Part shown: one piece after another, positions 7,934 through 38,102 of the stretch
How the letters are laid out: each line of letters starts with the position of its first letter
How positions within the stretch are numbered: position 1 is the stretch's first letter
Assembly: GCA_963842395.1 (NCBI GenBank)
Contig: CAWJGJ010000002.1
Location: 1,397,720 to 1,461,719, forward strand
Direction of reading: 5' to 3'
Source: an uncultured Acidimicrobiales bacterium
Lineage (GTDB): Bacteria; Actinomycetota; Acidimicrobiia; Acidimicrobiales; VFJN01
Length of the DNA stretch: 64,000 bases
Program-made: the position numbers and the translations under genes
Notes under the pieces: generated by a model
Database searches by the model: none
Told to the model about the DNA's origin: nothing
Seen by the model: the letters and a program-made list of their open reading frames with translations, nothing else

Positions 7934-8070
7934 CCGTCGGACATCGTCGGAGAGGACGGGTCAGGCGAGCTGGCCGAGACCAAGGAGGTCGTCGGCGGCT
8001 ACACGATGATCACCGCCGAGGACTACGACGAGGTCGCCGAGCTGTGCCGCCGCATCGCCGAGTGCTTGTG
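7934..8070 (+). pseudogene. remnant of a YCII/DGPF-domain protein (C-terminal part only)
   Basis: By hand translation the frame is open from 7877 and reads ...PSDIVGEDGSGELAETKEVVGGYTMITAEDYDEVAELCRRIAECL*. This resembles the DGPF..E.KE..GGF.li.a.d.deA core. There is no usable start codon, and a low-GC patch lies upstream. Confidence 0.3.
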
Positions 8071-8198
8071 AGCGTGCCCGGGTGGCAGGGCCGTGCGCGC
8101 CCCTTGACGTACCCTGACGACCCGGATGCACAAGCCAGCACACGGCGCGCCGATTCATGAGGGCGTGCCCCGGGCCGGGCGTGCGAGGGGGTGAACTG

Positions 8199-8768
8199 AT
8201 GGCTGAGCCTGAAGCAGGCGACAGCGCGACGAGGTTCCGCGGCATGCCGCCGCCACCGCCGCCGATCGTGCCGGTGCCGAGCGTGGAGGCCGCTCAGGGG
8301 CGCGCCGCCGAGGCCACGGGTGGCCTCGAGGCGACGATGCTCCGCGCGACGTCGTTCTGCGACGAGGAGCGCCACCGCAGCGTCAACGACGAGTGGTCCA
8401 CGGTCGACTCGCTGAGGCACGTCGTGCTCATCGTCGATCTGTGGCTGTCGAAGATCATCCTCGGTGAGCAGGATCCGTTCCACCCGATGGCACTCCCACC
8501 CACGTTCATGCCGCCCAAGCTGCCCGGCTCGTCCATCGACCCCGACGCACGGCCCACATTCGACGAGGCGTGCGACGTGGTGGGGAGCCGGCTCGCCACC
8601 GTCCGCACGTACATCGACACGCTCACGCCCGCCGACCTCGAGCGGCCCGTCAACGCGCACGCCAAGACCGTCGGCGGCGCGCTGGATGTGCTCCTCGGCG
8701 AGATGACGGCGCACAACCACTTCATCAACCGCGACCTCGACATCATCGAGGCATCTCAGTCGAGCTAG
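8199..8768 (+). CDS. DinB-family (DinB_2 / mycothiol-maleylpyruvate-isomerase N-terminal-like) protein
   Basis: Segment EWSTVDSLRHVVLIVDLW plus C-terminal HNHFINRDLD are typical of DinB four-helix-bundle proteins. ATG 8199 is preceded by GAGGGGG 7 nt upstream. The ORF-track start at 8157 is an alternative. Confidence 0.65.
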   Translation: MAEPEAGDSATRFRGMPPPPPPIVPVPSVEAAQGRAAEATGGLEATMLRATSFCDEERHRSVNDEWSTVDSLRHVVLIVDLWLSKIILGEQDPFHPMALPPTFMPPKLPGSSIDPDARPTFDEACDVVGSRLATVRTYIDTLTPADLERPVNAHAKTVGGALDVLLGEMTAHNHFINRDLDIIEASQSS

Positions 8769-8897: not shown

Positions 8898-10256
8898 CTA
8901 GAGGCTGGCGATCAGGCGGTCGACCCGCTCGTCGTGCGAGCGGAGGGGGTCGTTGCAGAGGACCGTGCGCTGCGCTTGGTCGTTGAGCTTCAGGTGGACC
9001 CAGTCGACGGTGTAGTCGCGCTTGCGTTCCTTGGCCCGACGGATGAATTCGCCCCGGAGGCGGGCCCGGGTGGTCTGGGGTGGGACCTCGACGGCCTCGT
9101 CGATCGCCTCGTCGCTGGCCACCCGCTCGACCAGCCCGCGCTCCTGCATCTTGTAGAAGAGGCCCCGGCGTCGGTCGATGTCGTGGTACTGCAGGTCGAT
9201 CAGCGCCACCCGTGGGTCCGACAGCGGCAGCTCGTGCCGGGCGCTGTACGACTCGATCAGCTTGTGTTTGATCACCCAGTCGACCTCACGGTCGAGCGAC
9301 AGCGGGTCGTCGGCGAGACGGGTGAGGCAGTGCTCCCACATCTGCAGCGCCTGGGCCTCCAGCGGCGAGAGGTCGCGGGTCTCGGCGTAGCGCTGCGCTC
9401 GCTCCAGGTACTCGGACTGGATATCGAGCGCGGAGGCCTCCCGCCCGTTCGCCAGTCGGACCAGGCGCTTCATCGTCGGATCGTGGCTGATCTCGCGGAT
9501 GGCCCGAATCGGGTTCTCGAGGGTCATGTCCCGCAGCACGAACGTCGGGTCCTCGAGCATGCGCAGCAGGATCGACGTCGCCCCCACCTTGAGGAACGTC
9601 GCGTACTCGCTCATGTTCGAGTCGCCCACGATGACGTGCAGCCGGCGGTAGCGCTCGGCATCGGAGAGGGGCTCGTCGCGGGTGTTGATGATCGGCCGGC
9701 TGCGGGTCGTCGCCGAGGACACGCCCTCCCAGATGTGCTCGGCCCGCTGGGCGATGCAGAACATCGCACCCCGGGCCGTCTGCAGCACCTTGCCCGCCCC
9801 GGCGTAGATCTGCCGCGAGACGAAGAAGGGGATCAGAACCTCGGCGTAGTGGCCGAAGTCGTCTCGCCGCGAGGTCAGGTAGTTCTCGTGGCAGCCGTAG
9901 GAGTTCCCGGCCGAGTCCGTGTTGTTCTTGAACAGGTAGACGCTGCCCCGGATGCCCTCGTCGCGCAGCTGCTGCGACGCCGAGACCAGGAGCTGCTCGA
10001 GTATCCGCTCGCCAGCCTTGTCGTGGGTGACCAGGTCGAGGATCGAGTCGCACTCGGGCGTGGCGTACTCGGGGTGACTGCCCACGTCGAGGTACAGGCG
10101 AGCCCCGTTGGCCAGGAACACGTTGCTCGACCGGCCCCACGACACCACCCGGCGGAACACGTCGCGCGCCACCTCGTCGGGGCTGAGGCGCCGCTGCCCC
10201 CGCAGGGTGAACGTGATCCCGTACTCGTTCTCGAGCCCAAAGATCCGCCGCTCCAT
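8898..10256 (-). CDS. pafA: Pup--protein ligase PafA
   Basis: 452-aa ORF. It is colinear with my recollection of mycobacterial PafA: GLENEYG..., [115 protein letters not shown]. Confidence 0.93.
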
Positions 10257-11864: not shown

Positions 11865-12677
11865 TCAGTCGGCGCGCCGGCCGGCCCGGAGGACGGTCAG
11901 ATAGCGGCGGGATGCCCTGTCGCCCATTCGCGTGCGGATGCGCTCGGCGATGGCGTCGAGCAGCGGTTCGCGCACGTCGGGACCGAGCCTCCGGTACAGC
12001 GACGTCGAGCGGAGGAGGTCGGCGAAGCCCTCGCCGTCGAACCACTGCACCGTCGGATACCACCGAACGGTGGTGGGGCCGAACAGGGCGCCCGGGTCGC
12101 TGACCAGGCCCCAGCCCTCGTTCGTGGCGCGCACCTCCTCCTCGAGGGGCGGATCGCCCCAGTCGGGGTTGCCGGGCGAGAAGCGCTCGTGGAGATCGGC
12201 GGTCTCGGCGTAGACCTCGGGCTCGCCGGGCCGGCGGACGACGACGTTGCCGAGCAGTGCCATCCAGCCACCGGCGTGGAGCACCTCGTGCGCTCGCCGC
12301 CAACCGACCGACGGGTCGACCCAGTGCCACGACGAGGCCGCGACCAGGACGTGGAAGCGCCGACCCCGGTCGTCCCACGTCTCGAACGACGACGTCTCGA
12401 TCTCGACGTTCGTGGCGGTCGAGAGCCGTTGGCGAGCGAGCGCGGCCATGGCCGTGCCGGCCTCGACCGCGGTGACCGAGCAGCCGAGCCCGGCCAGGGA
12501 AAGCGTGGCCTGCCCGGTGCCGCAGCCGACCTCGAGCACACTCGATCGCTCGTCCATGCCGGTGATGGCGACGAGATCCGAGAACAGCTCGTCCGGGTAG
12601 GTCGGTCGCACCCGGTCGTAGAGCTCGGGCACCTCGTCGAACACCCGGCCGAGGTGACGCCGATCTGTGTCGTCCAT
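11865..12677 (-). CDS. class I SAM-dependent methyltransferase
   Basis: Motif I VLEVGCGTGQATLSLA. The start is taken at the internal ATG (MDDTDRRHLGRVFDEV), which leaves a divergent intergenic region toward 12802. The ORF-track maximum is 12773. Confidence 0.8.
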   Translation of the reverse strand: MDDTDRRHLGRVFDEVPELYDRVRPTYPDELFSDLVAITGMDERSSVLEVGCGTGQATLSLAGLGCSVTAVEAGTAMAALARQRLSTATNVEIETSSFETWDDRGRRFHVLVAASSWHWVDPSVGWRRAHEVLHAGGWMALLGNVVVRRPGEPEVYAETADLHERFSPGNPDWGDPPLEEEVRATNEGWGLVSDPGALFGPTTVRWYPTVQWFDGEGFADLLRSTSLYRRLGPDVREPLLDAIAERIRTRMGDRASRRYLTVLRAGRRAD

Positions 12678-12801
12678 CCCGCGATCCTGCCGTCTCCGTC
12701 CACTTCCCAGCGACCGGCCGGGGCCTCTCCGATCCGGTGACCTCAGGGGTCGCCAGGATCGCGCCGCGTCCATGCCGCGGAGCCCCTACCGTTGTCGGGG
12801 C

Positions 12802-13116
12802 ATGGACATCGAGTTGCTGACGGTTCAGCGGTGTCCCCACCGTGCCGAGGCGCTGGCCCGGCTGGAGGCAGCGTTTGCCAGGGCATTGCCCACCGCCCCG
12901 GTCGTGACCGAGCACGTGATCACGAACGCGGCCGACGCCGCGGCGACCGGCATGCGCGGCTCGCCCACGATCCTCATCGACGGCCGGGACCCGTTCGGAG
13001 CGGATTCTGCGGAGCCGACGATGTCGTGCCGGCTGTACGCCACCGAGGCCGGCGTGGACGGCGCGCCGAGCGTCGACATGTTGGTCGCCGCATTGACCAG
13101 CGAGGAAGCGGGGTGA
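12802..13116 (+). CDS. small thioredoxin-fold protein (single CPH motif)
   Basis: 104 aa: MDIELLTVQRCPH...GSPTILIDGRDPF...SCRLY. The pattern resembles glutaredoxin/thioredoxin-like small proteins. ATG confirmed at 12802. Confidence 0.55.
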   Translation: MDIELLTVQRCPHRAEALARLEAAFARALPTAPVVTEHVITNAADAAATGMRGSPTILIDGRDPFGADSAEPTMSCRLYATEAGVDGAPSVDMLVAALTSEEAG

Positions 13117-13293
13117 CGGGATGGACGATGCGGACGGGATGGACGACGCGTGCGGTGAGGACGTGCACCTCGGCTCTCGGATCATGCGCGGCCGCGCGGG
13201 CCGGTCGGTGACGGTCGCCGGCGCTGCGGCGATCGACCTTGCCAGGTGGCGCGACGTGCCCAGGGTGCTGGGCGCTCGAGAGGGGGATCGGTC

Positions 13294-14571
13294 ATGACGA
13301 GCGACACCGTGACTGGCGAGACGACGACCGGGCAGGCGGGGACGTCGGCGTGTTCGTGCTGTGGCGAGGAGCGCCGCGAATCGGAGCTGGCGAGGCTGGG
13401 GTGCCACAGCGAGGTCGCGCTGTGTGACGGCTGCCTCGACTGGCTCCGCGACCAGCGATCGGCGGCCGGCGGGAGCCAGGTGCGTCGAGCGGTGCCGATC
13501 CTGGCCACCTCGGACGTGACCCGGGCGCTGGAGCACTACGCCGCCCTCGGGTTCGAGACCGAGGCGTGGGGAGGGGGCGGGTACGGGTTCCTGACCCGTG
13601 ACGGGGTCGAGCTCCATCTCGGCTCGGTCGAGGGTCACGATCCGACGACCAACACCGTGAGCTGCTACCTGTTCGTCGGCGACGCGGACGCGCTGCACGC
13701 CGAGTGGGCGGCGGCGGGGGTGGGGGGCCAGTTGGAGGCCCCCACCGACACCGACTACGGGCTGCGCGAGGGTCGTCACGTCGACCCCGACGGCAACGAC
13801 ATCCGCTTCGGCTCGCCGTTGCCCGACGGCCCGACCGACGACGGCTCGGTGCTCCTGGCCGCCGACGATCCGCTGGCGGTCGCCGCCACGGAGGCGGTCC
13901 AGGCCGGCGACCTCGACACGGTCACCCGGCTGCTGGCCGACCACCCCGAGCTGGCGACCGCCCGGATCGGGGACGCGACGACGTCCCGCACGATGGTGCA
14001 CGTCGCGACGGACTGGCCGGGCCACTTCGCCAACGGCGGCCGGATCATCGCGGCGCTCGCCGGGGCGGGCGCCGACGTCAACGCGCCGTTCGCCGGCAGC
14101 CACGCCGAGACACCGCTGCACTGGGCCGCCAGCAGCGACGACGTCGAGGCCCTCGACGCCCTGATCGACGCGGGCGCGGACATCGAGGCGCCCGGGGCGG
14201 TGCTCGGCGGAGGCACCCCCCTCGCCGATGCCGTCGGGTTCGGGCAGTGGCAGGCCGCCCGGCGCCTCGTCGAGCGCGGCGCCGCCACCCGGCTGAAGGA
14301 CGCCGCCGCGCTCGGGATGATGGACCGCATCGGGGCCGGCTTCTCCGGCGACCAGGCACCGCCTCCGGACCACGTCACCGACGCGTTCTGGGCGGCGTGT
14401 CAGGCGGGGCAGCGGGAGGCCGCCGAGTACCTGCTCGACCGTGGCGCAGACCTCAACTGGGTCGGCTGGGACGACCTCACCCCCCTGGACGTGGCCCTCC
14501 GGAGCGACGCCCCCGACCTCGCCGAGTGGCTGCGCGGCAGGGGCGCCAAACCCGCAGCCGAGCTCAGCTGA
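13294..14571 (+). CDS. Cys-rich N-terminus + VOC (glyoxalase/bleomycin-resistance) domain + ankyrin-repeat fusion protein
   Basis: GGGGGA SD precedes ATG 13294. N-terminal CSCCGEE...CHSEVALCDGC, then a VOC-like segment VPILATSDVTRALEHYAALGFE...VDPDGNDIRFG. Ankyrin-type repeats follow (TPLHWAASSDDVEALDALIDAGADIEA, LTPLDVALRSDAPDLAEWLRGRGA). Confidence 0.75.
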   Translation: MTSDTVTGETTTGQAGTSACSCCGEERRESELARLGCHSEVALCDGCLDWLRDQRSAAGGSQVRRAVPILATSDVTRALEHYAALGFETEAWGGGGYGFLTRDGVELHLGSVEGHDPTTNTVSCYLFVGDADALHAEWAAAGVGGQLEAPTDTDYGLREGRHVDPDGNDIRFGSPLPDGPTDDGSVLLAADDPLAVAATEAVQAGDLDTVTRLLADHPELATARIGDATTSRTMVHVATDWPGHFANGGRIIAALAGAGADVNAPFAGSHAETPLHWAASSDDVEALDALIDAGADIEAPGAVLGGGTPLADAVGFGQWQAARRLVERGAATRLKDAAALGMMDRIGAGFSGDQAPPPDHVTDAFWAACQAGQREAAEYLLDRGADLNWVGWDDLTPLDVALRSDAPDLAEWLRGRGAKPAAELS

Positions 14572-14596
14572 CCGTCGACCCCCCGGGCGACGGCGT

Positions 14597-14640
14597 GTCA
14601 GCCTAGGTTGACACACCGGCGACGTCAGCCTAGGTTGACA
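14597..14640 (+). promoter_or_regulatory. duplicated near-palindromic operator overlapping a leaderless-type promoter
   Basis: GTCAGCCTAGGTTGACA occurs twice (14597-14613 and 14624-14640, 27-nt period). TTGACA (14608-14613), a 17-nt spacer and TAGGTT (14631-14636, TANNNT) place a transcription start at about the ATG at 14645. Confidence 0.5.
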
Positions 14641-14644
14641 AGCC

Positions 14645-14872
14645 ATGGAAGAGATGGCCGCGCTCGCCGATGCGGTGGACAGCCGAGACCCCGCGGTGGG
14701 CCTGGCCGCGGTGGCCACGCTGAGGACCCTCGTCGACGAGCTCGAAGTGCTCCACGTCGACAACGCCCGGGCGCGCGGCTGGTCGTGGCAGGCGATCGCC
14801 GAGCGACTGGGTGTCACCCGCCAGTCCGTCCACAAGAAGCACCGTCGAAGCCGGCCACGCGGGAAGGCATGA
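14645..14872 (+). CDS. small helix-turn-helix DNA-binding protein
   Basis: 75 aa with a C-terminal HTH, GWSWQAIAERLGVTRQSVHKKH. Its stop overlaps the next start (ATGA at 14869-14872). Confidence 0.7.
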   Translation: MEEMAALADAVDSRDPAVGLAAVATLRTLVDELEVLHVDNARARGWSWQAIAERLGVTRQSVHKKHRRSRPRGKA

Positions 14873-24167: not shown

Positions 24168-25270
24168 TCAGGGCCCGGGCAGTGGCGGCAGGTGCGCCAT
24201 CAGCGCCTGCAGGAGCAGCGTCTCGTTGGGGTAGCGCTGCAGCGACACGGCGGCGGCGTCGATGCGGGTCGCCGCCTCGACGAACGAGCGCCGGGCGCCC
24301 CGCTCGACGAGGGCGTCGCGGTAGGCCGCCGCCAGCGTGGCCAGGCCGAAGCGCAGCTCGGCGGTGCGGAACCGGCGCACCTCGCGCTTGTGGCGGGCCT
24401 CGAGGTCCTTCTTGCCCGACCCCCGCAGCCCGTACTGCTCGATCTGCTCGTCGAGCTCGGCGACCTCGGCCGCCTGGACCTGCTGCAGCGGCCCCAACGC
24501 CTCGGCGATCATGGCCTGCAGCTCGGCCACCACGGCGGCCGCCCGATGGCCCGTGCCGTCGAGCCGGCCGGGCGCCTCGCGCCAGGCCTGGTGGCGCAGG
24601 GCCAGGCGATCGTCGCTGGCCAGGGTGCGGGCGCGGTCGAGGTCCCCGCCCGCGGCCGCAGCCGCGGCGGAGGCCCGCTCGGCGTCGACGCCCTCGGCCA
24701 CGAGGCGCTCGGCCACCACCTCGGCCGGCAACGCCTGCAGCTCGATCCGCACGCACCGGCTGGCGATCGTGACCAGCTCCGGTACGACCTCGGTCGCCGA
24801 CAGCACGAAGACGGTCGACGCCGGCGGCTCCTCCACGGTCTTGAGGAGGTAGCCCGCCGCCTCGTCCTCCATGTCCTCGCAACCGTCCGCCACGACCACC
24901 TTGCGGGTGCCCTCGACCGGAGCCAGCGTGGCGTGGCGCACCACCCGCTCGGCGTCGCCCTTGCGGAAGGTGTTGCCCTCGGGCTCGACCACCCGCAGGT
25001 CCGGGTGCTGCTCGGCCAGGGCCAGGCGCAGGTGGCGGCGCCGCTCGTCGTCGTCTCGGCCCCGGCGGCCAGCAGCAGGGCGGCGAAGCCCCGGGCCACC
25101 GCCCGGGCGCCCGACCCCGCCGGCCCCACCAGCAGGTAGGCGTGCACCGGCCCGCGCGCCGCCGCCGTGAGCTGGCGGATCGCCCCGGCCTGGCCCACGA
25201 CCTGGTGCCACGGATCGTCGGGGTCGACGCCCGGGTGGTGGTCGACGGTGGCGGGCCCGGTCGGTGTCAC
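24168..25270 (-). pseudogene. holB: DNA polymerase III subunit delta-prime, one apparent frameshift
   Basis: The N-terminal part (HAYLLVGPAGSGARAVARGFAALLLA) is in one frame. The rest (...KVVVADGCEDMEDEAAGYLLKTVEEPPASTVFVLSA...ASRCVRIEL) is in another, with the break in a C4/G4 run at about 25060. It sits in the conserved topA-tmk-holB order. Confidence 0.8.
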
Positions 25271-26094: not shown

Positions 26095-28878
<2,784 letters not shown>

Positions 28879-29033
28879 CGGCGACAGTTGAAGTGCATCG
28901 CGCCTTCACTGTCAAACACCTGCATGCACGGGCAGTCCCGCCGACCGGCCCGCAGCGCTCATCCGGGCGAGGGGCAGGGCCCGGCGACGGGCACCCTCCC
29001 CACGCGGTGCCGGCGGGCGTTCAGGGATGTGTT

Positions 29034-29075
29034 GGGGTGATCCCCGATGCCCCGACGGGGGGTCAGCCGTAGCCT
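29034..29075 (+). promoter_or_regulatory. GATCCCC-box promoter, copy 1
   Basis: GGGGTGATCCCCGATG (29034-29049), 20 nt, then TAGCCT (29070-29075, TANNNT), upstream of the first IniB-like gene. Confidence 0.55.
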
Positions 29076-29121
29076 GACAAGGTCCCCGGATCGCCGCCGG
29101 GGCGTCAACTCAGGAGGACAG

Positions 29122-29913
29122 ATGGACGGCATGTCACTTCTCGACGTGCTGCGGGGCGTCATGCTCGACCCGGCCGAACAGGCCGCGTACAACGCCAACC
29201 CCGGCGCGTACCTGGAGCACTACGGCTACGACGACGTCGACTCCGCCGACCTGTCCGAAGCCTTCGGCCTCGTGGCCGACACGCTGCCCCCCGAGGTGGC
29301 CCAGACCGCGTGGCAGGCCTCGGCCGACCACGGGGACGAGGCCTTCGGTGGGGTGACCACCGAGTTCGACACCCAGGCCGGCGTCGACGCCGAGCCCGAG
29401 CCACCGCCCGGGGCCGATGCGCCCGGGGCGGCCGACGACGCCGACCCCGCGCTGTCGTTCGGCTACGGCGAGGCCGACGATCAGGACCTCGACGGCGACG
29501 CGTCGGGCGCGGGCCTGCTCGCGGCGGACGCGTCGACCACCAACGGCAGCCACGACGGCGGCGCCTTCGGGGACGCGGCCGTCGACGACCTCGCGGATCC
29601 CGACGACGCCGGAACGTTCGGCGACCTCAGCACCGGAGACGAGAGCGGCACCGGCGACGTCAGCGGCGAGGACGGCGACGACGCCGGCGACGACGCCGGC
29701 CCGGACGGGCCCGCCGCGGACGACGACGGTGCCGGGCCCGGCGACGGCTGGGACGACCTCGGCGACGGCCAGCTCGACGGCGGGCTGGAGGGCGACGACG
29801 GCGGCCTGGGGATCGGCGAGCTCGGCGACGACTCGGCCGAGATCGACGGCCTGAACGACCTCGCCGGCCTCCCGGACGACTCGTCCGACGGCACCGACAT
29901 CGGCTCGTTCTGA
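29122..29913 (+). CDS. IniB N-terminal domain protein with Asp/Gly-rich acidic tail (paralog 1)
   Basis: (MDG)MSLLDVLRGVMLDPAEQAAYNANPGAYLEHYG resembles the IniB N-terminus (SLIDYILSLFRSEDAARSFVAAPG in M. tuberculosis, from memory). AGGAGG at 29112-29117. The alternative start at 29131 (MSLL) aligns better with the paralogs. The tail has one Arg and no Lys. Confidence 0.75.
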   Translation: MDGMSLLDVLRGVMLDPAEQAAYNANPGAYLEHYGYDDVDSADLSEAFGLVADTLPPEVAQTAWQASADHGDEAFGGVTTEFDTQAGVDAEPEPPPGADAPGAADDADPALSFGYGEADDQDLDGDASGAGLLAADASTTNGSHDGGAFGDAAVDDLADPDDAGTFGDLSTGDESGTGDVSGEDGDDAGDDAGPDGPAADDDGAGPGDGWDDLGDGQLDGGLEGDDGGLGIGELGDDSAEIDGLNDLAGLPDDSSDGTDIGSF

Positions 29914-30027
29914 CCCTGCTCTCGGAGCGCGCACGGGCCCACGTCGAGCGTCGCGAACCGTTCGGGCCGCGACGCCGTATCCCGCTCCGTGACAGCACGC
30001 AGGACAGCGCTCTCGCCGCTCTCGATC

Positions 30028-30053
30028 GTGGCCCGGGTACTCACCCGGGCCAC
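30028..30053 (+). terminator. stem-loop downstream of IniB-like gene 1
   Basis: Perfect 11-bp stem GTGGCCCGGGT/ACCCGGGCCAC with loop ACTC. There is no U tract. Confidence 0.4.
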
Positions 30054-30123
30054 CGTCGCGCCCGGCCCCGGCGCACTCCCCGGGACCCCGTCGCGATCCC
30101 CTAAGGGATCCACCGGCCGGCAG

Positions 30124-30165
30124 GGGGCGATCCCCGATGGCCAGCTGACGCCGGAGTCGTAGCGT
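30124..30165 (+). promoter_or_regulatory. GATCCCC-box promoter, copy 2
   Basis: GGGGCGATCCCCGATG (30124-30139), 20 nt, then TAGCGT (30160-30165). Extra half-sites CGATCCCC-TAA-GGGATC lie at 30094-30110. Confidence 0.55.
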
Positions 30166-30224
30166 GCTCCACACGCAAGGTCGCTCGAGAGGCGGGTGGC
30201 CCCAAAACCAGGAGCAACTAAGCG

Positions 30225-31382
30225 ATGTCACTCATCGACACCCTCTTCAACATCTTCAACGACAACGACACCCAGAACGCCTTCCAGAACAACCCTGAGG
30301 GCTTCCTGAACCAGAACGGGCTCGGCAACATCAGCAGCATCGAGGTGCAGGAAGCGATCCCGCACGTCCTGACGGCCCTCCAGGGCAACTCGGGCGGCGC
30401 CACCCAGGGCGGCGCGGCGTCCTTCGCCAGCAGCGGCAACGTCACCCTGCCCCCGCCGCCCCCCGGCGGCGGCGGCGACGACGGCGGCCTGTCGGGCGCC
30501 ATCGAGTCGATCAACCACTACACCAGCGTCCTGAACGAGACGAACCAGACGTTCGAGGACAACGACACCACCAACATCGACGACTCGGACACCCAGGTCG
30601 ACCAGTCGGTCAACCAGGACATCACCGCCTTCGGCGATGTCACCCAGGACTTCGACAACGACGTCGTGTCCGGTGACGGCAACGCCCTGGCCGGCGACAA
30701 CTCGCAGGTCAACAGCGGTGCCGGGGCCGTGCAGGCCGGCGACGACATCGAGGACTCCAACGTCGTCACCGGTGTCGTCAACGACTCGGTCCTGGCCGAC
30801 GACATCGAGGACTCGGTCGTCGGCGACAACAACGAGGCCATCATCGACTCCGAGGTCGGCGCGGCCGCCTTCGGTGACGGCGACGCCACCAACGTCACGG
30901 CCCAGAACGCCAACGTCGGCGACGGCACCCAGATCGTGGGCGGCAACGGCGACGTCAACGCCAACGTGGGCGACGGCGACTTCACCCAGATCGACGACTC
31001 CAACCTGAGCGAGTCGGTCGTGGGCGGCGGCACCGTGCAGTCCAACGACGTCAACATCGAGGCCGACGACGGCGCCGCAGTGGCGTTCGGCGAGGGCTCC
31101 GAGGCCGAGGGCTCGAACGTCGACATCGACGATGTCAGCGGCAACGTCCAGGTGGCCGGCGACGACTCGACCCAGGTCGTGGACCAGTCGACCGACAACT
31201 CGGTCAACGACAGCTTCAACGCCACCGACAGCTTCAACGCCACCGACAACTCGGTGAACGACAGCTACAACATCGAGGACAGCTTCGACACCGAGGTCGA
31301 CGCCAGCGACAACAGCGTCAACATCGATGAGAGCGACAACTCGATCGACGCCAGCGACGACGACGTCGTCGACATCGCCTGA
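30225..31382 (+). CDS. IniB N-terminal domain protein with Asp/Asn/Ser/Val-rich repeat tail (paralog 2)
   Basis: 385-aa intact ORF with AGGAGC 9 nt before the ATG. The N-terminus is MSLIDTLFNIFNDNDTQNAFQNNPEGFLNQNG, followed by a poly-Pro/Gly hinge and about 290 aa of quasi-repetitive acidic sequence. No Lys or Arg anywhere in the protein. Confidence 0.8.
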   Translation: MSLIDTLFNIFNDNDTQNAFQNNPEGFLNQNGLGNISSIEVQEAIPHVLTALQGNSGGATQGGAASFASSGNVTLPPPPPGGGGDDGGLSGAIESINHYTSVLNETNQTFEDNDTTNIDDSDTQVDQSVNQDITAFGDVTQDFDNDVVSGDGNALAGDNSQVNSGAGAVQAGDDIEDSNVVTGVVNDSVLADDIEDSVVGDNNEAIIDSEVGAAAFGDGDATNVTAQNANVGDGTQIVGGNGDVNANVGDGDFTQIDDSNLSESVVGGGTVQSNDVNIEADDGAAVAFGEGSEAEGSNVDIDDVSGNVQVAGDDSTQVVDQSTDNSVNDSFNATDSFNATDNSVNDSYNIEDSFDTEVDASDNSVNIDESDNSIDASDDDVVDIA

Positions 31383-31418
31383 GCCTCCGGCAACGGCACC
31401 AGCAATCCCAGGCATCAT

Positions 31419-31450
31419 CCAGGGCCCCGGCAGCGTTGCCGGGGCCCTGG
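31419..31450 (+). terminator. stem-loop downstream of IniB-like gene 2
   Basis: Perfect 14-bp stem CCAGGGCCCCGGCA/TGCCGGGGCCCTGG with loop GCGT. Confidence 0.5.
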
Positions 31451-31460
31451 CGCGCCCTGG

Positions 31461-31500
31461 CGGGTCGGGGTCGGCCCGGGCGGGTCGGGGTCGGCCCGGG
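31461..31500. repeat. perfect 20-nt tandem duplication
   Basis: CGGGTCGGGGTCGGCCCGGG occurs twice in tandem, directly after the terminator hairpin. Confidence 0.8.
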
Positions 31501-31558
31501 CGGCGGCGATGATCCCCGTCCCGGCGAGCCATCCCCCACGCCACCCTCCATTCACCGC

Positions 31559-31600
31559 GGGGCGATCCCCGATGCCCTCCCCGTCACCTGGGCGTACGTT
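31559..31600 (+). promoter_or_regulatory. GATCCCC-box promoter, copy 3
   Basis: GGGGCGATCCCCGATG (31559-31574), 20 nt, then TACGTT (31595-31600). An additional GATCCCC lies at 31511-31517. Confidence 0.55.
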
Positions 31601-31656
31601 GTCGCCATGGCCTCCCGGATGCGGGTGGAGGTCCCGAGCACCAGGAGTGCCCCGAA

Positions 31657-32878
31657 ATGAGCGTCATCGACTTCCTTCTCGACTACTTCCGCAGCGACGA
31701 GCAACAAGACGAGTTCGCGAACGATCCTGCGGCCTTCCTCGACGCCAACGCCCCCGACGGGCTGACCGCCGAGGCCATCCTCGCCGCCATGCCCGGCGTG
31801 TGCGCCGAGCTGCCCGCCGAGCAGGCCGACTCGCTGCGGACGGCCTACGGGCTGGACGGCTCGTCGGGCGACGGCGGCACCGGCGGCGGCGGTGGCAGTG
31901 GTGGCGGCGGTGGCGGGCGACATCGATCCCGGCTCACAACCCGCTTCCCCCGCCCCCCACCCCGGACCCGGGCGGCGACCCCCTCGAGAACCTGATCGAG
32001 CAGATCAACTACTACACGACCGTCACGAACGTCACGAACCAGACGTTCGAGGACAACGACGTCACGAACATCGACGACAGGGACACGCAGGTCGACCAGT
32101 CGGTCAACCAGGACATCACCGCCTTCGGCGATGTCACCCAGGACTTCGACAACGACGTCGTGTCCGGTGACGGCAACGCCCTGGCCGGCGACAACTCGCA
32201 GGTCAACAGCGGTGCCGGGGCCGTGCAGGCCGGTGGCGACATCGAGGACTCCAACGTCGTGACCGGCGCCGTCACCGACTCGGTCCTGGCCGACGACATC
32301 GAGGACTCGGTGGTCGGCGACGGCAACCAGGCCATCATCGACTCGTCGGTGGGCGCCGCCAGCTTCGGCGACGGCGACGCCACCAACGTCGACGCCCAGA
32401 ACGCCAACGTCGGCGACGGCACCCAGATCGTGGGCGGCAACGGCGACGTCAACGCCAACGTGGGCGACGGCGACTTCACCCAGATCGACGACTCCAACCT
32501 GAGCGAGTCGGTCGTGGGCGGCGGCACCGTGCAGTCCAACGACGTCGACATCACGGCCGACGACGGCGCCGCAGTGGGCTTCGGCGCCGGCTCCTCGGCC
32601 GAGGGCTCGAACGTCGACGTCGACGATGTCAGCGGCAACGTCCAGGTGGCCGGCGACGACTCGACCCAGGTCGTGGACCAGTCGACCGACAACTCGGTCA
32701 ACGACAGCTTCAACGCCACCGACAGCTTCAACGCCACCGACAACTCGGTGAACGAGTCAGCTACAACATCGAGGACAGCTTCGACACCGAGGTCGACGCC
32801 AGCGACAACTCGATCGACGTCGACGCCAGCGACAACTCCGTCGACGTCAGCGACGACGACGGTATCGACGTCGCCTGA
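31657..32878 (+). pseudogene. IniB N-terminal domain protein with Asp/Asn-rich repeat tail (paralog 3), two apparent frameshifts
   Basis: The N-terminus is MSVIDFLLDYFRSDEQQDEFANDPAAFLDANA. The frame breaks in the Gly-codon run at about 31915 and again at about 32757 (aacgagtcagctac versus aacgacagctac in paralog 2). The reconstructed end is ...SDDDGIDVA* with TGA at 32876-32878. Confidence 0.7.
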
Positions 32879-32994
32879 TCGCACTCATTGACGCACCGGC
32901 AACGGGGCCCCGGTTCACTGCTGGGGTCCCGTGCCGCGTGTACTGACACCCACTCGATCCGCGTTAGCGTTGCCGGGTACAAGGAGCTGCGCAC

Positions 32995-34901
32995 ATGGCG
33001 GGGAACCCCAACGCCGGCCAGAGGTCGGCGACCGTCCAACAGGCACTGTCCGTAGTCGACCTCGGGCGACAGGCGAGCACGGCGTACGACCGTCCCGACC
33101 TGGCCAGCCGGCTCGCGTTCACGCGCAAGCGCCTCGCCGACCCCGCCTTCCACGTGTTCGTCATCGGCGAGTTCAAGCAGGGCAAGTCGTCGCTGGTCAA
33201 CGCCCTGCTCAACGCACCCGTGTGCCCCGTCGACGACGACATCGCCACGTCGGTGCCCACCGCCATCCGCTACGGCGACCCGCCCGCCGCGGCCGTCCTG
33301 TTCGACCCGGGTGGCGACCTGTCCGATCCCACCCGCGAGCCGATCCGCGAGACCATCCCGGTCGACCAGGTCGCCCGCTACGTCACCGAGACGGCCGAGG
33401 TCGCCGGCGAGCGCCGGGTCAGCTCGGTCGAGGTGTCCCTGCCCCGCAAGCTGCTCAGCGACGGGCTCGTGATCGTCGACACCCCCGGCGTCGGGGGACT
33501 GGGCTCGGCCCACAGCGCCGCCACCATCGGGGCGCTGCCCCTGGCGGACGCCGTGGTGTTCGTCTCCGACGCCAGCCAGGAGTTCACCGGTCCCGAGCTG
33601 GATTTCCTGCAGACCGCCCGCCGCATGTGCCCCAACGTGGTGTGCGTGCTCACCAAGACCGACTTCTACCCGTCGTGGCGCAAGATCCGCGACCTCAACG
33701 TCGACCACCTGGCCCGCCAGGGGGTCCCGGCCGAGATCCTGTGCGTGTCGTCCTCGCTGCGGGTGCACGCCCTGCGGGCCAACGACCGCGAGCTCAACCG
33801 CGAGTCGGGCTTCCCCGAGCTGGCGGGGTACCTCCAGAACAAGATCGCCGGCAACGCCGAGAAGCTGAGCGTGCGGTCGGCCGTGAACGACGTCGTCGCC
33901 GTCGCCTCTCTGCTCGAGAGCCAGTTCCGCAGCGAGCGCGATGCCCTCGACAACCCCGAGGAAGCCCAGCGGGTGGTCGACAACCTCACCGAGCTCAAGG
34001 CCAAGGCCGAGCGGCTGAAGAGCGGCGTGTCGAAGTGGCAGCAGACGCTCACCGACGGCGTGGTCGACCTGCAGGCCGACGTCGACCACGACCTGCGGGC
34101 CCGGGTCCGGCAGGTGTCCCGCATGTCCGACGAAGCGATCGAGGCCAGCGACCCGGCGGAGACCTGGGAGGAGTTCGAGCCGTGGCTCACCCGGCGGGTC
34201 ACCGAGGAGGTCGTCCACAACTACACCTTCCTCCACGCCGCGCGCCGACGGCCTGATCGAGCGCGTGAGCGAGCACTTCGGCGAGGACGGCGCGGACATC
34301 GTCATCGACCTCGACGTCGCCAACCCCAGGGAGGTGCTGGGGACGGTCGACGCCAACACCGACGTCGAGCTCAGGAAGATGGGCGTCGGTGGGCAGAGCC
34401 TGACCATGCTGAAGGGCAGCTACGGCGGCATCATCATGTTCAGCGTGCTGGGGAGCATGGCCGGCCTGGCGGTCGGCGCGGTCGGCGGTCCCGCCGCGAT
34501 GATGGTCGGCCTCCTCATGGGCCGCTCGGCGCTGAAGGGCGAGAAGCAGCGCCAGCTCGCGAATCGCCGCGCCCAGGCCCGGCAGGCCGTACGTAAGTAC
34601 ACCGACGAGGTGAGCTTCGTCGTGGGCAAGGACTCCCGCGACACGCTGCGCCGCACCCAACGCCGCATGCGCGACTTCTTCGCGGCCCGAGCCGAGGAGC
34701 TGCACCGGTCGACCACGAGCGCGCTCGCCGCCGCCCAGCAGGCGGTGAAGTCCGACGCCTCCAGCCGCCAGAAGCGGCTGCGCGACGTCGACGCCGAGCT
34801 GAAGCGCATCGCGGTGCTGCGCGACCGGGCCTACGCGCTCGGCGCCCGAGCTCAAGGCCGGCGACAAGGCGGCCGGCGCCGCCGGGGGTGGCTCGTCGTG
34901 A
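32995..34901 (+). pseudogene. IniA-like bacterial dynamin-like GTPase, two apparent frameshifts
   Basis: AAGGAG SD. G1 motif VIGEFKQGKSSLVNAL and G3 motif VDTPGVGG are present. A hydrophobic paddle GGIIMFSVLGSMAGLAVGAVGGPAAMMVGLLMG follows. Breaks are at about 34245 and 34846. The reconstructed tail is ...APELKAGDKAAGAAGGGSS*, about 634 aa (M. tuberculosis IniA is about 640 aa, from memory). Confidence 0.75.
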
Positions 34902-36382
34902 ACGCTCGCACCAGCTCGACGCTGCTGGCCAGCGTGCGGCACCTGCTGGAGCAGGGCACGCAGTCTTACGCGCACGTGCCCGAGGCCCGGCAGCGCCTCC
35001 AGGCAGTGCTCGACCGGCTCGACGAGCCGCTGCGGGTCGCCATCGCCGGCAAGGTCAAGGCCGGCAAGTCCACGCTGCTCAACGCCCTGGTGGGCGAGGA
35101 GCTGGCACCCACCGACGCCGGCGAGTGCACCCGCATCGTCACCTGGTACCGCGACGGCATCACCTACCGGGCCACGCTCGAGCCCAAGCAGGGCGAGGCC
35201 CGCCAGGTGCCCTTCGCCCGCGACGGCGGGGCCATCAGCATCGATCTGGGCGGCACCGACCCCGAGGACGTGAACCGCCTGGTCATCGAGTGGCCGTCGT
35301 CGTCGCTGCGGCAGATGACGCTCATCGACACCCCGGGCATCGCCTCGCTGTCGACCGACGTGTCGGCCCGCACCATCGCCTTCCTCACCCCGGGCGAGGA
35401 CCAGGTGACCCCGGCCGACGCGGTGCTGTACCTGATGCGGCACCTGCACGCGTCCGACATCAACTTCCTCGAGGCGTTCCACGACGAGGAGTTCTCGCAG
35501 GCCACGCCGGTCAACGCCGTGGCCGTGCTGTCCCGGGCCGACGAGGTGGGCGTGGGGCGCATCGACTCGATGGCGTCGGCCCAGCGCATCGCCGCCCGCT
35601 ACCGCCACGACCCCAAGGTGCGGCGCCTGGCCCAGACCGTGGTCCCGGTCGCCGGCCTGCTGGCCCAGTCGGGGGCCACGCTGCGCGAGGCCGAGTACAA
35701 GGGCCTCGACGCCATCGCCAACGCACCCCGCGACGACGCCGAGGCGTTGTTCCTGTCGGCCGACCGGTTCGTGCAGGCCGAGACGCCCATCCCTCTCACC
35801 TCGATGGAGCGCGAGCACCTGCTCGACCGCTTCGGCCTGTTCGGCGTGCGGCTGGCCGTGGCGCTCATCCGCCAGGGCGCCGCCTCGACGGCCACCGCCC
35901 TGTCGACCGAGCTGGTGCGGCGCAGCGGCCTGGTCGAGCTGCGCGACGTGCTGCTCAGCCAGTTCGCGCAGCGGCGCGACGTGCTCAAGGCCCGGTCGGC
36001 CCTGCTGGCCCTCGAGTCGGTGTTGCACGAGTTCCCGGTGGCCGACGGCGAGGTCCTGGCCTCCGAGCTCGAGCGCATCACCTCGGCGGCCCACGAGTTC
36101 GCGGAGATCCGCCTGCTGAACGCCCTGCGGGCCAGCGGCATCAAGATCAAGCCGGCCGAGGCCGCCGAGATGGAGCGGGTGCTGGGGGCCGAGGGCAGCA
36201 GCATCCACACCCGCCTCGGCCTCAGCCCCGAAGCCGACGTGTCCGAGGTGCGGCGGGCATTGGGCAACGCCATCGGGCGGTGGCAGCGTCGGGCCGAGAG
36301 CCCTATGTCGTCGCGCGAGGTCGCGGACGCGGCCCGCGTGGTCATCCGATCCTGCGAAGGTCTGCTGGTCTCGCTGGGCTGA
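34898..36382 (+). CDS. IniC-like bacterial dynamin-like GTPase
   Basis: The GTG start overlaps the upstream stop (GTGA at 34898-34901). G1 motif IAGKVKAGKSTLLNALVG and G3 motif IDTPGIASL are present. 494 aa and intact (M. tuberculosis IniC is about 493 aa, from memory). Confidence 0.8.
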   Translation: MNARTSSTLLASVRHLLEQGTQSYAHVPEARQRLQAVLDRLDEPLRVAIAGKVKAGKSTLLNALVGEELAPTDAGECTRIVTWYRDGITYRATLEPKQGEARQVPFARDGGAISIDLGGTDPEDVNRLVIEWPSSSLRQMTLIDTPGIASLSTDVSARTIAFLTPGEDQVTPADAVLYLMRHLHASDINFLEAFHDEEFSQATPVNAVAVLSRADEVGVGRIDSMASAQRIAARYRHDPKVRRLAQTVVPVAGLLAQSGATLREAEYKGLDAIANAPRDDAEALFLSADRFVQAETPIPLTSMEREHLLDRFGLFGVRLAVALIRQGAASTATALSTELVRRSGLVELRDVLLSQFAQRRDVLKARSALLALESVLHEFPVADGEVLASELERITSAAHEFAEIRLLNALRASGIKIKPAEAAEMERVLGAEGSSIHTRLGLSPEADVSEVRRALGNAIGRWQRRAESPMSSREVADAARVVIRSCEGLLVSLG

Positions 36383-36409: not shown

Positions 36410-38102
36410 GTGGAGATATCTGGGGGACACATCGACATGCCGAGCATGCGTGATGCCGACCGGGACGAGTCGTTGGCCGCCCTCACCGAACGCGACGAGC
36501 CGGCGCCGGGTTCGGCCGACTTCTGGTGGTCGGCGTCGCCGGGGGGCGCCATAGCTCCCCCGCCGCGATCCCCCGCCCCGGCCCCGGGCTCGCCCCTCCC
36601 CGGGACGCCCGTGCCCGACGCCGGCGACCCGGTCCCCGACGCACCCGTGACCGGCGACCCGGTGCCCGGCGCACCGGCCACCGCCACATCGGGCGCCCGC
36701 GCGCCGGACACCGACGAACCTGTCCCCGGCGACCCGGCCTCCTGGGGGCCCGGCGCCGACGATGCCGTCCCGCCGGCGTGGCGGGGGCCGGGGTACGTCC
36801 CGCCCCCGTCACCCGCGTACTCGCCCCCGGTGGTCCCGCCCGTGGCGCCGGTGCGCCCGCCCAGCCCCTACCGCGCGCCCGGTGCCGGAGCCCGAGCACG
36901 AGCCGCTGTCACAGGCCCAGCGGTCACGGCGAGCGGGCGGCCGCCTCCTCGTGGCCGGGGTGTCGCTCGTGGCCATCGCCGCGGGCGTCGTCGTGATCCA
37001 GGGGAGCGGCGGCGGCACCGACGACCCCGATCGCTACGTGTTCGGTCAGGTGGCCGCCACCTCGCCGGGGGTGACCATCCGTGCCGGCGCCGGCGAGGGC
37101 GACGAGCGCCCGCTGGCTCCCGGCGACGACGTCGAGGCCGGATCGGTGCTCGAGACCACCGCCGGCGCCTCGGCGTCCGTGGACCTCGCGCAGGGCGGGG
37201 CGCTACGGGTCGAGGGCGGGGCCCGTCTGGTGTTCGTCGACCTGGCCGCCGACCCCCAGACCGGCGCCGCCGCGGCGCGGGGCAAGCCGGCCATCCAGGT
37301 CGAGGGCGGGCGGGTGTGGCTCAACCCGCAGGGCCGGGAGCCATTCGAGGTGCAGGTGGTGGGGGGAACGGTCGGCACCACCGGCCACCCGGTGGCGATC
37401 GACTGCGACCCCGTGTGCGCGGTCGAGGCCCCCGCCGGCGGCGTGACCGTCACCACCCGGGCGGACGGCCGGTCGACCCCCGCCCCGGGCGAGCTCGTGA
37501 CCATCACCTCCGGAAACAGCTTCGAGGTCGAGCTCGCGGGCGAGCCGTCGGCCTGGGCCACCGAGAACCTGGCCGCCGACGGCGAGGCGGGCATCCCCGA
37601 GGACCCCGACGCCGGCGAGCCCGGCATCAGGGAGTCGGCGCTGTTCGGCGGCAGCTACTCCCTCGACCTCGAGGTGGTCGGGAGCCCCACCGGCGACGCC
37701 ATCCCCGAGCCGCTGCGCTACCCCCAGGGCAGCACCTACAACGTCACGGTGCTGGCCGACGGCACCACCTGTGACGCCCTGCCGTGCGCCGTGCCGGTCA
37801 GCGGCCTCGACGGCGGTGCGGGCTCGGCCGAGCTGGCCGACGCCACCGTCGCCCTCACGCTCGGCCAGACCATCGACTGTTTCGACGAGACCGACACGGC
37901 GGTGGTGGTGCCCGGCATCGGCACCACCACAGTCGACGTCACGCTCACGGTCGACGATGTCGCTTACGAGGGCGGCCGCTGGGTGGTCACGTCGCTCTCC
38001 GGCACGGGCGAGGTGTCGGCGCAGCTCACCAAGGTGTGCAACCCCACCGACGTCCTGGGCACCAGCACGTCGGCCGTGGAGGCGACGGGCGCGGCCAACT
38101 GA
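36410..38102 (+). pseudogene. Pro-rich cytoplasmic segment + single TM + FecR-like extracytoplasmic domain protein, one apparent frameshift
   Basis: High-GC3 Pro-rich coding runs in the first frame to about 36880. It then continues in the next frame with ...RRAGGRLLVAGVSLVAIAAGVVVI (TM) and a FecR-like segment, VTIRAGAGEGDERPLAPGDDVEAGSVLETTAGASASVDLAQGGALRVEGGARLVF. The start is uncertain (36410 GTG, 36437 ATG or 36446 ATG). Confidence 0.6.

Follow-up and report, generated by a model that had tools for sequence, protein, structure and literature searches.

For 25 years IniB has been the unexplained part of the isoniazid-induced iniBAC operon of mycobacteria (Rv0340-Rv0343), a protein with a conserved N-terminus and a tail that varies between species. 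IniA performs membrane fission, and the IniB tail of Mycobacterium tuberculosis is glycine-rich and resembles cell-wall proteins (PMC6715688). Vesicle release depends on IniA and IniC, and IniB was detected in vesicles, its role being unknown (PMC10240201); its conserved N-terminus has been proposed to serve 'interaction or secretion', again with an unknown function (PMC5760070). Here we describe a related locus in a window of 64,000 nucleotides (the whole stretch of DNA that was analysed) from an uncultured Acidimicrobiales bacterium (contig CAWJGJ010000002.1, positions 1,397,720 to 1,461,719). Our analysis concerned the second of three tandem paralogues, hereafter the target (paralog 2), which encodes a protein of 385 residues without any Lys or Arg. 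It is very probably an IniB-family member associated with a pair of dynamin-like proteins (DLPs), and its C-terminal domain, conserved but rare and of extreme chemistry, has not been described before, a new part in a known family.

The family assignment comes from the N-terminal head. The NCBIfam model NF038175 (IniB_NTERM), which has 49 positions and a curated cutoff of 40 bits, matched the target with 42.9 bits over the full protein and 47.2 bits over the head alone, residues 2-49 aligning to model positions 1-48, and one of the homologues (P0098) was already named 'IniB N-terminal domain-containing protein' in its source. A Pfam search of the full target gave no match. As for mycobacterial IniB and Rv0340, the IniB N-terminal domain is encoded directly ahead of two DLP genes, the first of them for an IniA homologue, IniB_N paralogues stand in tandem, and the head is followed by a long, compositionally biased C-terminal region without enzymatic domains. 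The differences lie in the host, a member of the Acidimicrobiales, in the number of paralogues (three, each with a promoter-like motif) and in the tail, which in the target is Asp/Asn-rich, carries a net charge of -78 without Lys or Arg, and is conserved, non-repetitive and found in 133 clusters. Where M. tuberculosis IniB has a Gly/Ala-rich tail the target has an acidic conserved domain, a mismatch that is compatible with membership of the domain family because NF038175 covers the N-terminal domain only.

The genes downstream extend the comparison. The IniA-like protein matched the structure of IniA (6J72) from Mycobacterium smegmatis, a species without iniB, with an E-value of 5.2e-81, and the second dynamin-like GTPase matched BDLP (2J68) with an E-value of 4.8e-8 and was 92% identical to a homologue of 495 residues. 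The two genes share the letters GTGA (34898-34901), which hold both the GTG start of the second and the stop of the first, likewise in the relative L001, an arrangement that suggests translational coupling of the two GTPases. Together, the IniB_NTERM match, the IniA homologue and the second dynamin-like GTPase led us to regard the locus as iniBAC-type, with three IniB-like genes followed by iniA and iniC. We take the gene order Rv0340-iniB-iniA-iniC to be its mycobacterial parallel, which is supported by the name of a further model, NF038176 ('Rv0340 family IniB-related protein'), weakly touched by two of the three paralogues. The order topA (on the opposite strand), paralogs 1, 2 and 3, DLP1, DLP2 and a transmembrane (TM) protein was found in all related loci with enough sequence (~17), and in both a distant Actinomycetota metagenome-assembled genome (MAG) and Natronosporangium an IniB-like, tail-bearing gene lies right before two DLPs.

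The target open reading frame (ORF) begins at ATG 30225, 10 nt 3' of an AGGAG motif, and ends with a TGA stop at 31380-31382; its third-position GC content (GC3) of 0.97, in a window of ~72% GC, indicates a real gene. The most frequent residues of the product are Asp (60), Asn (46), Gly (44), Val (41), Ser (39), Ala (34), Thr (24), Ile (21), Gln (20) and Glu (18), with Asp and Asn together amounting to 27.5% of the protein, Gly to 11% and Ala to 9%. Lys, Arg, Cys and Trp are all absent, and the initiator is the sole Met. The computed isoelectric point (pI) is ~4.05 and the net charge ~-78. Against the composition of the sixteen other genes of the window (Lys 2.0%, Arg 7.8%, Asn 1.7%), the chance of finding no Lys or Arg over 385 residues is ~5e-18, and Asn is 7-fold enriched in the target, contrary to the GC bias. 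In concordance with the preliminary description of this DNA, which was made from its letters, we found a polyanionic product without Lys or Arg, a Pro/Gly hinge (PPPPPGGGG, residues 75-84, with P77-P79 nearly invariant among homologues), no stretch resembling a signal peptide or a TM segment (highest 19-residue Kyte-Doolittle mean 0.61), a paralog 1 with no Lys and one Arg, provided that it starts at the Met of MSLLDVL (29131), and a pairing with putative membrane-remodelling GTPases, two of which, both with Dynamin_N, are encoded downstream. Its remark that the function is unexplained agrees with the two papers in which that of IniB is called unknown (PMC10240201, PMC5760070). The IniB domain and the iniBAC-type locus, the third paralogue and the concerted evolution described below had been overlooked there.

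We found 270 homologues of the target, the best of them 67% identical over the full length. The close homologues (<=67% identity) came from MAGs of uncultured Acidimicrobiales and Acidimicrobiia, and the topA and thiolase genes of the window were 88-94% identical to their counterparts in one Acidimicrobiales/Acidimicrobiia MAG. In an alignment of 82 sequences (51-71% identical to the target) the core of the tail, approximately residues 100-320, showed a majority-residue frequency of 0.66-0.92 with a gap fraction of ~0, compared with 0.57-0.61 for the head. Invariant columns numbered 28, and the invariant positions of the tail were nearly all Asp, Asn, Gln, Ser, Thr or Gly, plus F136 and F143; they include N104, D112, D114, T116, D120, D122, D126, S128, Q131, F136, G137, Q141, F143 and D144. 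Poor conservation and indels, as expected from a low-complexity linker, were confined to residues 326-385 (conservation 0.37-0.58, gaps up to 29%). Since the core is more conserved than the head and nearly free of indels, we conclude that it is under sequence-specific constraint and reject the idea of a mere linker. Of 120 homologues, 110 have no Lys, and across the set Lys and Arg together usually number 1-3.

Searched with a profile of the tail, 1.84 billion (1.84e9) representatives yielded only 133 clusters at E<=1e-3. Most of them have an IniB-like head with the tail starting at about residue 100, and distant members retain the motif DDRDT-x-VD-x-S-x-NQ-x-I-x-x-GDV-x-Q-x-FD-...-SGDGAVAAGD. 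A few are tail-only proteins of 180-240 residues without an IniB head (P0149, P0150, P0165, P0176, P0180; in the contig L024, positions 8001-8651), and their existence shows the tail to be an evolutionary module in its own right; one of them, P0165, adjoins Dynamin_N fragments, whereas the contigs of P0150 and P0176 are so short that they give no informative context. An Hsp70-family fragment lies near the tail-only gene of L024. The tail had no Pfam match at E<=10, bactofilin, curli, beta-helix and RTX-type families included.

Comparison of the paralogues revealed a sharp boundary between head and tail. Paralog 3, rebuilt across its frame changes, is ~31% identical to the target in the head, and 91% identical in the tail at the protein level (93.6% in DNA). 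In three genomes, that of the window and two independent others, the tails of paralogs 2 and 3 were 91-98% identical on heads of 29-36% identity (further pairs compared were P0007/P0078, P0009/P0080 and P0045/P0113), whereas orthologous tails were only 65-74% identical between genomes. Within the window, the differences between the two tails (30510-31199 and 32004-32693) fall in patches between identical tracts of ~50 codons. Near-identical tails on divergent heads, together with this mosaic of differences, point to repeated gene conversion that stops at the hinge. The sharing could be driven by the tandem position alone, or the two heads may need the same tail, for co-assembly or for a common ligand; either would account for it.

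The preliminary description had further read recurrent short units with a spacing of 10-12 residues into the tail and had suggested a beta-solenoid. The spacing was not borne out, as residue autocorrelation showed no peak at lags 10-12 and the spectral signal at 10-12 residues was negative across 52 distant homologues. We observed instead a weak period of ~8-8.5 residues concerning hydrophobicity and Gly: the hydrophobicity profile of the family peaked at 8.0 residues (z 4.3), and the 52 distant homologues gave a mean z of 0.7-1.0 at 8-8.5 residues, with 17-21% of them above z 2. Gly power was also present at 16-18 residues. Short units do recur in the last 70 residues, where internal local alignment against shuffles reached a z of 5 and TDNSVNDSFNATDSFN occurs twice, and they do not in the core (z 1-2, not significant); hhalign of sub-alignments detected one weak internal duplication (192-220 against 259-292, 86% probability). 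Turns of the GDG/GNG type are more frequent than expected (5 observed, 0.8 expected) and N-x-S/T sequons are mildly enriched (10 against 5.8). Regular-expression counts in the target were 0 each for RTX (GG.G.D and a loose form), EF-hand-like, DxDxDG, curli-like and pentapeptide patterns.

Structure prediction by AlphaFold2 (AF2) gave the tail of the full protein a predicted local distance difference test (pLDDT) score of ~50 and no secondary structure. A tail-only run with a deeper alignment (103 sequences) raised the mean pLDDT to 64.6, with conserved blocks up to 82, and again contained no DSSP elements; Foldseek found no match for this model in the PDB. In the Uversky charge-hydropathy plot the tail lies on the disordered side, with a charge of -0.22 per residue. 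On these models the tail is best described as sequence-specific and weakly quasi-periodic (~8.5 residues), with no predicted fold, and its features fit a domain whose ordering depends on ions or partners. The beta-solenoid is at present unsupported but conceivable: a weak period exists, yet there were no significant repeats in the core, no strands in the two AF2 runs and no Foldseek match. The lack of a predicted periodic fold had been named beforehand as one of two signs of a linker without specific function; the other, poor conservation among homologues, was contradicted by a core that is better conserved than the head and nearly indel-free, and by the absence of Lys from most homologues. 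One comparable known architecture is the RTX beta-roll (GGxGxDxUx) of proteins secreted by the type I route, which is likewise acidic, Gly/Asp-rich and Cys-free, is built of short units with one inward hydrophobic residue, and has a period of 9 residues, near the ~8-8.5 of the target; both would be expected to be unfolded without cations. The target differs from it in having no canonical nonapeptide, no Pfam RTX match and no AF2 beta-roll, and in lying in an actinobacterial host with no type I secretion genes nearby.

The head, in contrast to the tail, was modelled by AF2 as a confident helical domain (residues 1-52; helices 3-12, 14-22, 24-30 and 38-52; pLDDT ~85). Its profile produced only weak matches in PDB sequences, all to SonA (E 0.14-0.36) and spanning the whole head, and the top Foldseek match of the full model in the PDB was also SonA (7ltr_I, TMt 0.62), at an insignificant E-value of 4.5. 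Pairwise hhalign of the head with the SonA N-terminal domain gave a probability of 73%, Pfam LigA reached E 0.069 on the head of a distant family member (the query was partly retyped, with the match falling within its genuine residues 10-40), and a profile from three heads gave a single match, of 70 residues, in the protein database. SonA is the precursor of a split-borosin ribosomally synthesised and post-translationally modified peptide (RiPP; structures 7LTC, 7LTR and 9CH7), and according to the structure titles it was crystallised in a heteromeric complex with the methyltransferase SonM. Like the target, it has a small N-terminal LigA-like helical domain followed by a flexible Gly-rich segment, and the two share the pattern h-x-x-F/L-x-x-L-x-x-D-x5-F/Y-x-x-(N/D)P-x-x-h-L-x-x-x-G-h-x-x-x-(D/E)-h. 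The similarity is weak, no methyltransferase or RiPP enzyme is encoded in the target locus, and a tail of 290 residues far exceeds a RiPP core. We therefore treat the likeness as a lead towards the head being a small partner-binding handle, not as a family assignment; the confident helical model and the resemblance to a domain crystallised with its partner would both be consistent with such a handle. Behind the hinge, a conserved short helix precedes the acidic core. Its pattern I-x-x-Y-T-x-V-x-N recurs in distant homologues, and the tail-only AF2 model has a helix in the same region, at its residues 5-12.

The coordinates of these and the surrounding features are collected in the table.

Features of the iniBAC-type locus, in coordinates of the 64,000-nucleotide window
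Feature	Position	Strand	Description
Target gene (paralog 2)	30225..31382	+	IniB-family protein, 385 aa, without Lys, Arg, Cys or Trp
IniB N-terminal domain	30228..30371	+	Residues 2-49; four short helices; NF038175 match
Gly/Ser/Ala-rich segment and PPPPPGGGG hinge	30390..30488	+	Residues 56-88; AF2 pLDDT <50
Conserved short helix SGAIESINHYTSV	30489..30527	+	Residues 89-101, ahead of the acidic core; AF2 pLDDT ~77
Conserved acidic core of the tail	30510..31199	+	Residues 96-325; non-repetitive; weak quasi-period of ~8-8.5 residues
Variable low-complexity C-terminal end	31200..31379	+	Short true tandem repeats (TDNSVNDSFNATDSFN and similar); ends DDDVVDIA
Conserved 16-nt upstream motif GGGGCGATCCCCGATG	30124..30139	+	101 nt ahead of the target start; followed by TAGCGT (-10-like)
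Copies of the 16-nt motif	29034-29049, 30124-30139, 31559-31574	+	Upstream of paralogs 1, 2 and 3
GC-rich hairpin	31419..31450	+	Perfect 14-bp stem, 37 nt past the stop, no T-run
Paralog 1	29131..29913	+	IniB_N-like head, unrelated Asp/Gly/Ala-rich acidic tail; 260 aa, 0 Lys, 1 Arg
Paralog 3	31657..32878	+	Divergent IniB_N head (MSVIDFLLDYFRSD...), target-like tail; two frameshifts
IniA-like dynamin-like GTPase, membrane hairpin	32995..34901	+	Dynamin_N 7.9e-22; at least 2 frameshifts in the assembly
Second dynamin-like GTPase	34898..36382	+	~494 aa; Dynamin_N; IniC-like position and size
Frame-change sites	~25034-25085; ~34237-34244, ~34835-34850; ~31915, ~32760		holB; iniA-like gene; paralog 3

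Upstream of the paralogues lies a conserved motif. Its shared form, GGGGYGATCCCCGATG, occurs at exactly three sites in the 64 kb, a number reached by none of 100 shuffles, and each site is 97-101 nt upstream of a paralogue start with a TANNNT-like hexamer ~20 nt further. Altogether 17 related loci have the 16-nt motif at an identical offset, and it is probably a shared promoter or operator. A scan with the sigma-70 consensus gave no promoter, and a search of metagenome contigs for exact copies of the motif returned mostly chance sites, with an IniB_N ORF downstream at only 1 of 81, and so says nothing about a regulon. The hairpin behind the target lies in a segment (31383-31470) with a predicted folding energy of -52.2 kcal/mol, and is likely a transcript end or an RNA-stability element between paralogs 2 and 3; an Rfam scan of 28800-33100 gave nothing credible. 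With a motif ahead of each paralogue and a hairpin after the target, the paralogues look like separately initiated, co-regulated units.

Paralog 1 scored 29.6 and 33.3 bits with IniB_NTERM, under the cutoff, and so did paralog 3 (34.1 bits) when rebuilt to 403 residues; Pfam gave nothing at E<=10 for either. Paralog 3 is spread over three frames (ORFs 31657-31995 and 31509-32891, then frame 2 from ~32762), the breaks being an indel near 31915 and an insertion of 2 bp (GT) near 32760. Compared with intact homologues (of 626 residues for the IniA-like protein), at least five frame changes lie within ~10 kb of the window. We considered pseudogenisation of paralog 3 and iniA and found it less likely: the essential holB is frameshifted too and relatives carry an intact paralog 3, so the breaks are more likely indel errors of the assembly, and residue-level details of the window need to be read with care.

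Other genes were observed around the dynamin pair here and in relatives. Directly behind the pair in the window comes a gene (36762-38102, plus strand) that every related locus shares, at 37-50% identity. Its product belongs to no Pfam family, a single TM-like segment is predicted close to its N-terminus, and the gene may be part of the same system. In the Natronosporangium contig L021 a 781-residue protein with a C-terminal LuxR-type helix-turn-helix, reminiscent of mycobacterial IniR, precedes the IniB-like/DLP/DLP trio (the LuxR-type regulator is at 5146-7491), and an Hsp70-like protein with a long extension comes after it (12671-14869).

We propose that the target is a modular accessory protein of an IniA/IniC-type dynamin system, with a docking head and a cation-responsive tail. 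Taken whole, we give this proposal an even chance; the mechanism built on docking head and cation-responsive tail is tentative, and we hold it to be somewhat doubtful. The head would serve for docking, either onto the dynamin-like proteins or onto some common partner. The effector part would be the tail: as a polyanion in the cytoplasm it would on its own be extended or unfolded and be repelled by the anionic membrane, and divalent cations, acting through its invariant Asp, Asn, Gln, Ser, Thr and Gly residues, would order it or link it to sister tails or lipid phosphates. In this way the cation-dependent tail could adjust the time and place at which the dynamin pair remodels or repairs the membrane, and the exclusion of Lys and Arg would serve to maximise charge density. 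A protein without Lys cannot be pupylated, an explanation that leaves the absence of Arg unaccounted for. A Pup-ligase family protein is encoded elsewhere in the window, at 8898-10256 on the minus strand (Pfam Pup_ligase, E 1e-163), so that the organism possesses machinery for pupylation, a modification of Lys. Acidic proteins that buffer cations at high capacity or sense damage, such as calsequestrin and the annexins with their Ca-bridged membrane binding, offer a purely functional analogy: those proteins are also very acidic and rich in oxygen-donor side chains, and the cation-dependent ordering or membrane bridging proposed for the target, in a context of repair, would resemble theirs, although they have no sequence or fold relationship to it.

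Several points weigh against this proposal. Binding of the target to dynamins, to cations and to membrane is in each case something we infer, and its cytoplasmic location is deduced solely from missing export signals. The similarity of the head to SonA is below significance in database terms. The canonical Ca-binding motifs (RTX, EF-hand and DxDxDG) all numbered zero, AF2 gave no fold for the tail and Foldseek returned nothing. Tandem gene conversion can homogenise neighbouring genes in the absence of selection for identical tails. Distant homologues carry up to 16 Lys, which indicates that strict Lys/Arg exclusion is specific to a clade while acidity is family-wide; being clade-specific, the exclusion cannot be essential to the core function of the family. 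A single tail mechanism common to the whole IniB family is also unlikely.

The target could instead be a cargo that is exported or loaded into vesicles by a non-Sec route, through dynamin-dependent vesicles or an unlinked ATP-binding cassette (ABC) exporter, its tail folding outside the cell with divalent cations in the manner of RTX proteins. In M. tuberculosis IniB is reported to be a vesicle cargo and IniA and IniC are needed for vesicle release (PMC10240201), and 'secretion' is one of the two roles suggested for the conserved IniB N-terminus (PMC5760070). The tail has traits of a type I secretion substrate (a pI of ~4, no Cys, Gly/Asp-rich units of ~8-9 residues and disorder in the cation-free state), its C-terminus is acidic and then hydrophobic (DDDVVDIA) as in such substrates, and a protein without Lys and Arg would be expected to resist trypsin-like extracellular proteases. 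However, conservation is lowest at the very C-terminus, RTX nonapeptides are absent, and there is neither a signal peptide nor a TM segment; no secretion-system gene was found in the conserved locus or nearby, and no transporter or ESX genes in the conserved locus. Export by type VII secretion finds no better ground, as the protein has no Trp, hence no WxG motif, and its head consists of four short helices and not of the long hairpin of WXG100-like proteins. Export is disfavoured by the absence of a signal or transporter, and we judge it unlikely.

A purely physical role would require neither fold nor ligand. The tail would form a polyanionic brush, a disordered chain on the dynamin coat that exerts steric or electrostatic pressure in membrane bending, spacing or prevention of aggregation. 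Its place on the disordered side of the Uversky plot at -0.22 charge per residue, the lack of secondary structure in either AF2 run and the lack of any fold or family match agree with this, and the variable, repeat-bearing C-terminal 60 residues behave so. A constraint on composition alone does not predict ~230 residues nearly free of indels with invariant positions that include two Phe, nor a conservation higher than that of the folded head, nor a motif (DDRDT-x-VD-x-S-x-NQ-x-I-x-x-GDV-x-Q-x-FD) still recognisable in distant homologues. Positional conservation thus disfavours the brush, which seems to us distinctly unlikely.

We also weighed a bolder form of the docking-head proposal, which we regard as improbable. 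Here the tail would be a cation-switched, degenerate beta-roll with ~8.5 residues per half-turn, unfolded and repelled by the membrane in the cytoplasm at rest; when divalent cations enter at a membrane lesion it would fold and bridge lipid phosphates or co-assemble with the sister tail, and the head would recruit IniA and IniC to the damage.

Tails of different paralogues might also join with one another in a polymer, or in a filament resembling a beta-roll, which would be nucleated at the dynamin complex and serve as a scaffold; we hold this to be very improbable. It would explain matching tails on different heads in three lineages (91-98% identity within and 65-74% between genomes) and accords with the weak 8-8.5-residue period, with Gly power at 16-18 residues as for a roll of two units per turn, with the excess of GDG/GNG turns (5 against 0.8) and with AF2 confidence of ~80 in the conserved blocks, but neither strands nor a solenoid appear in the AF2 models, chains with a net charge of -78 are ill suited to self-association unless counter-ions are present, the tail has no Pfam match at E<=10 even to bactofilin, curli or beta-helix families, and tandem position alone can explain gene conversion.

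Three further candidates were rejected. That the target mimics DNA and acts on topA, which is transcribed divergently, is hard to reconcile with the distant loci L020 and L021, in which adjacency to topA is lost and adjacency to the dynamins is kept; a RiPP precursor would call for a modifying enzyme or a peptidase-transporter, neither of which lies nearby, and the tail has 290 residues; and the Streptomyces DynA/DynB pair, to which the high GC had first pointed, is not the frame for this locus, whose relatives are Acidimicrobiales MAGs. A preprint on Streptomyces DynAB leaves IniB unmentioned.

Our analysis demonstrates no new mechanism; the variant described here makes the question of IniB more testable. 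It is a locus in which the IniB-type tail is strongly conserved, free of Lys and Arg and charged at -78, and in which two heads per genome share that tail, and the separable head and tail provide a cleaner handle on the IniB-type contribution to bacterial dynamin function. Even if the tail does not depend on cations, it is a well-delimited new domain family for annotation. Should it prove to be a cation-dependent membrane-binding or assembly tail, bacterial dynamins would be connected with a logic of ion-triggered repair that has so far been eukaryotic, and a cation-switched tail that recruits the dynamins would stand as the bacterial equivalent of the membrane repair that calcium triggers through annexins.

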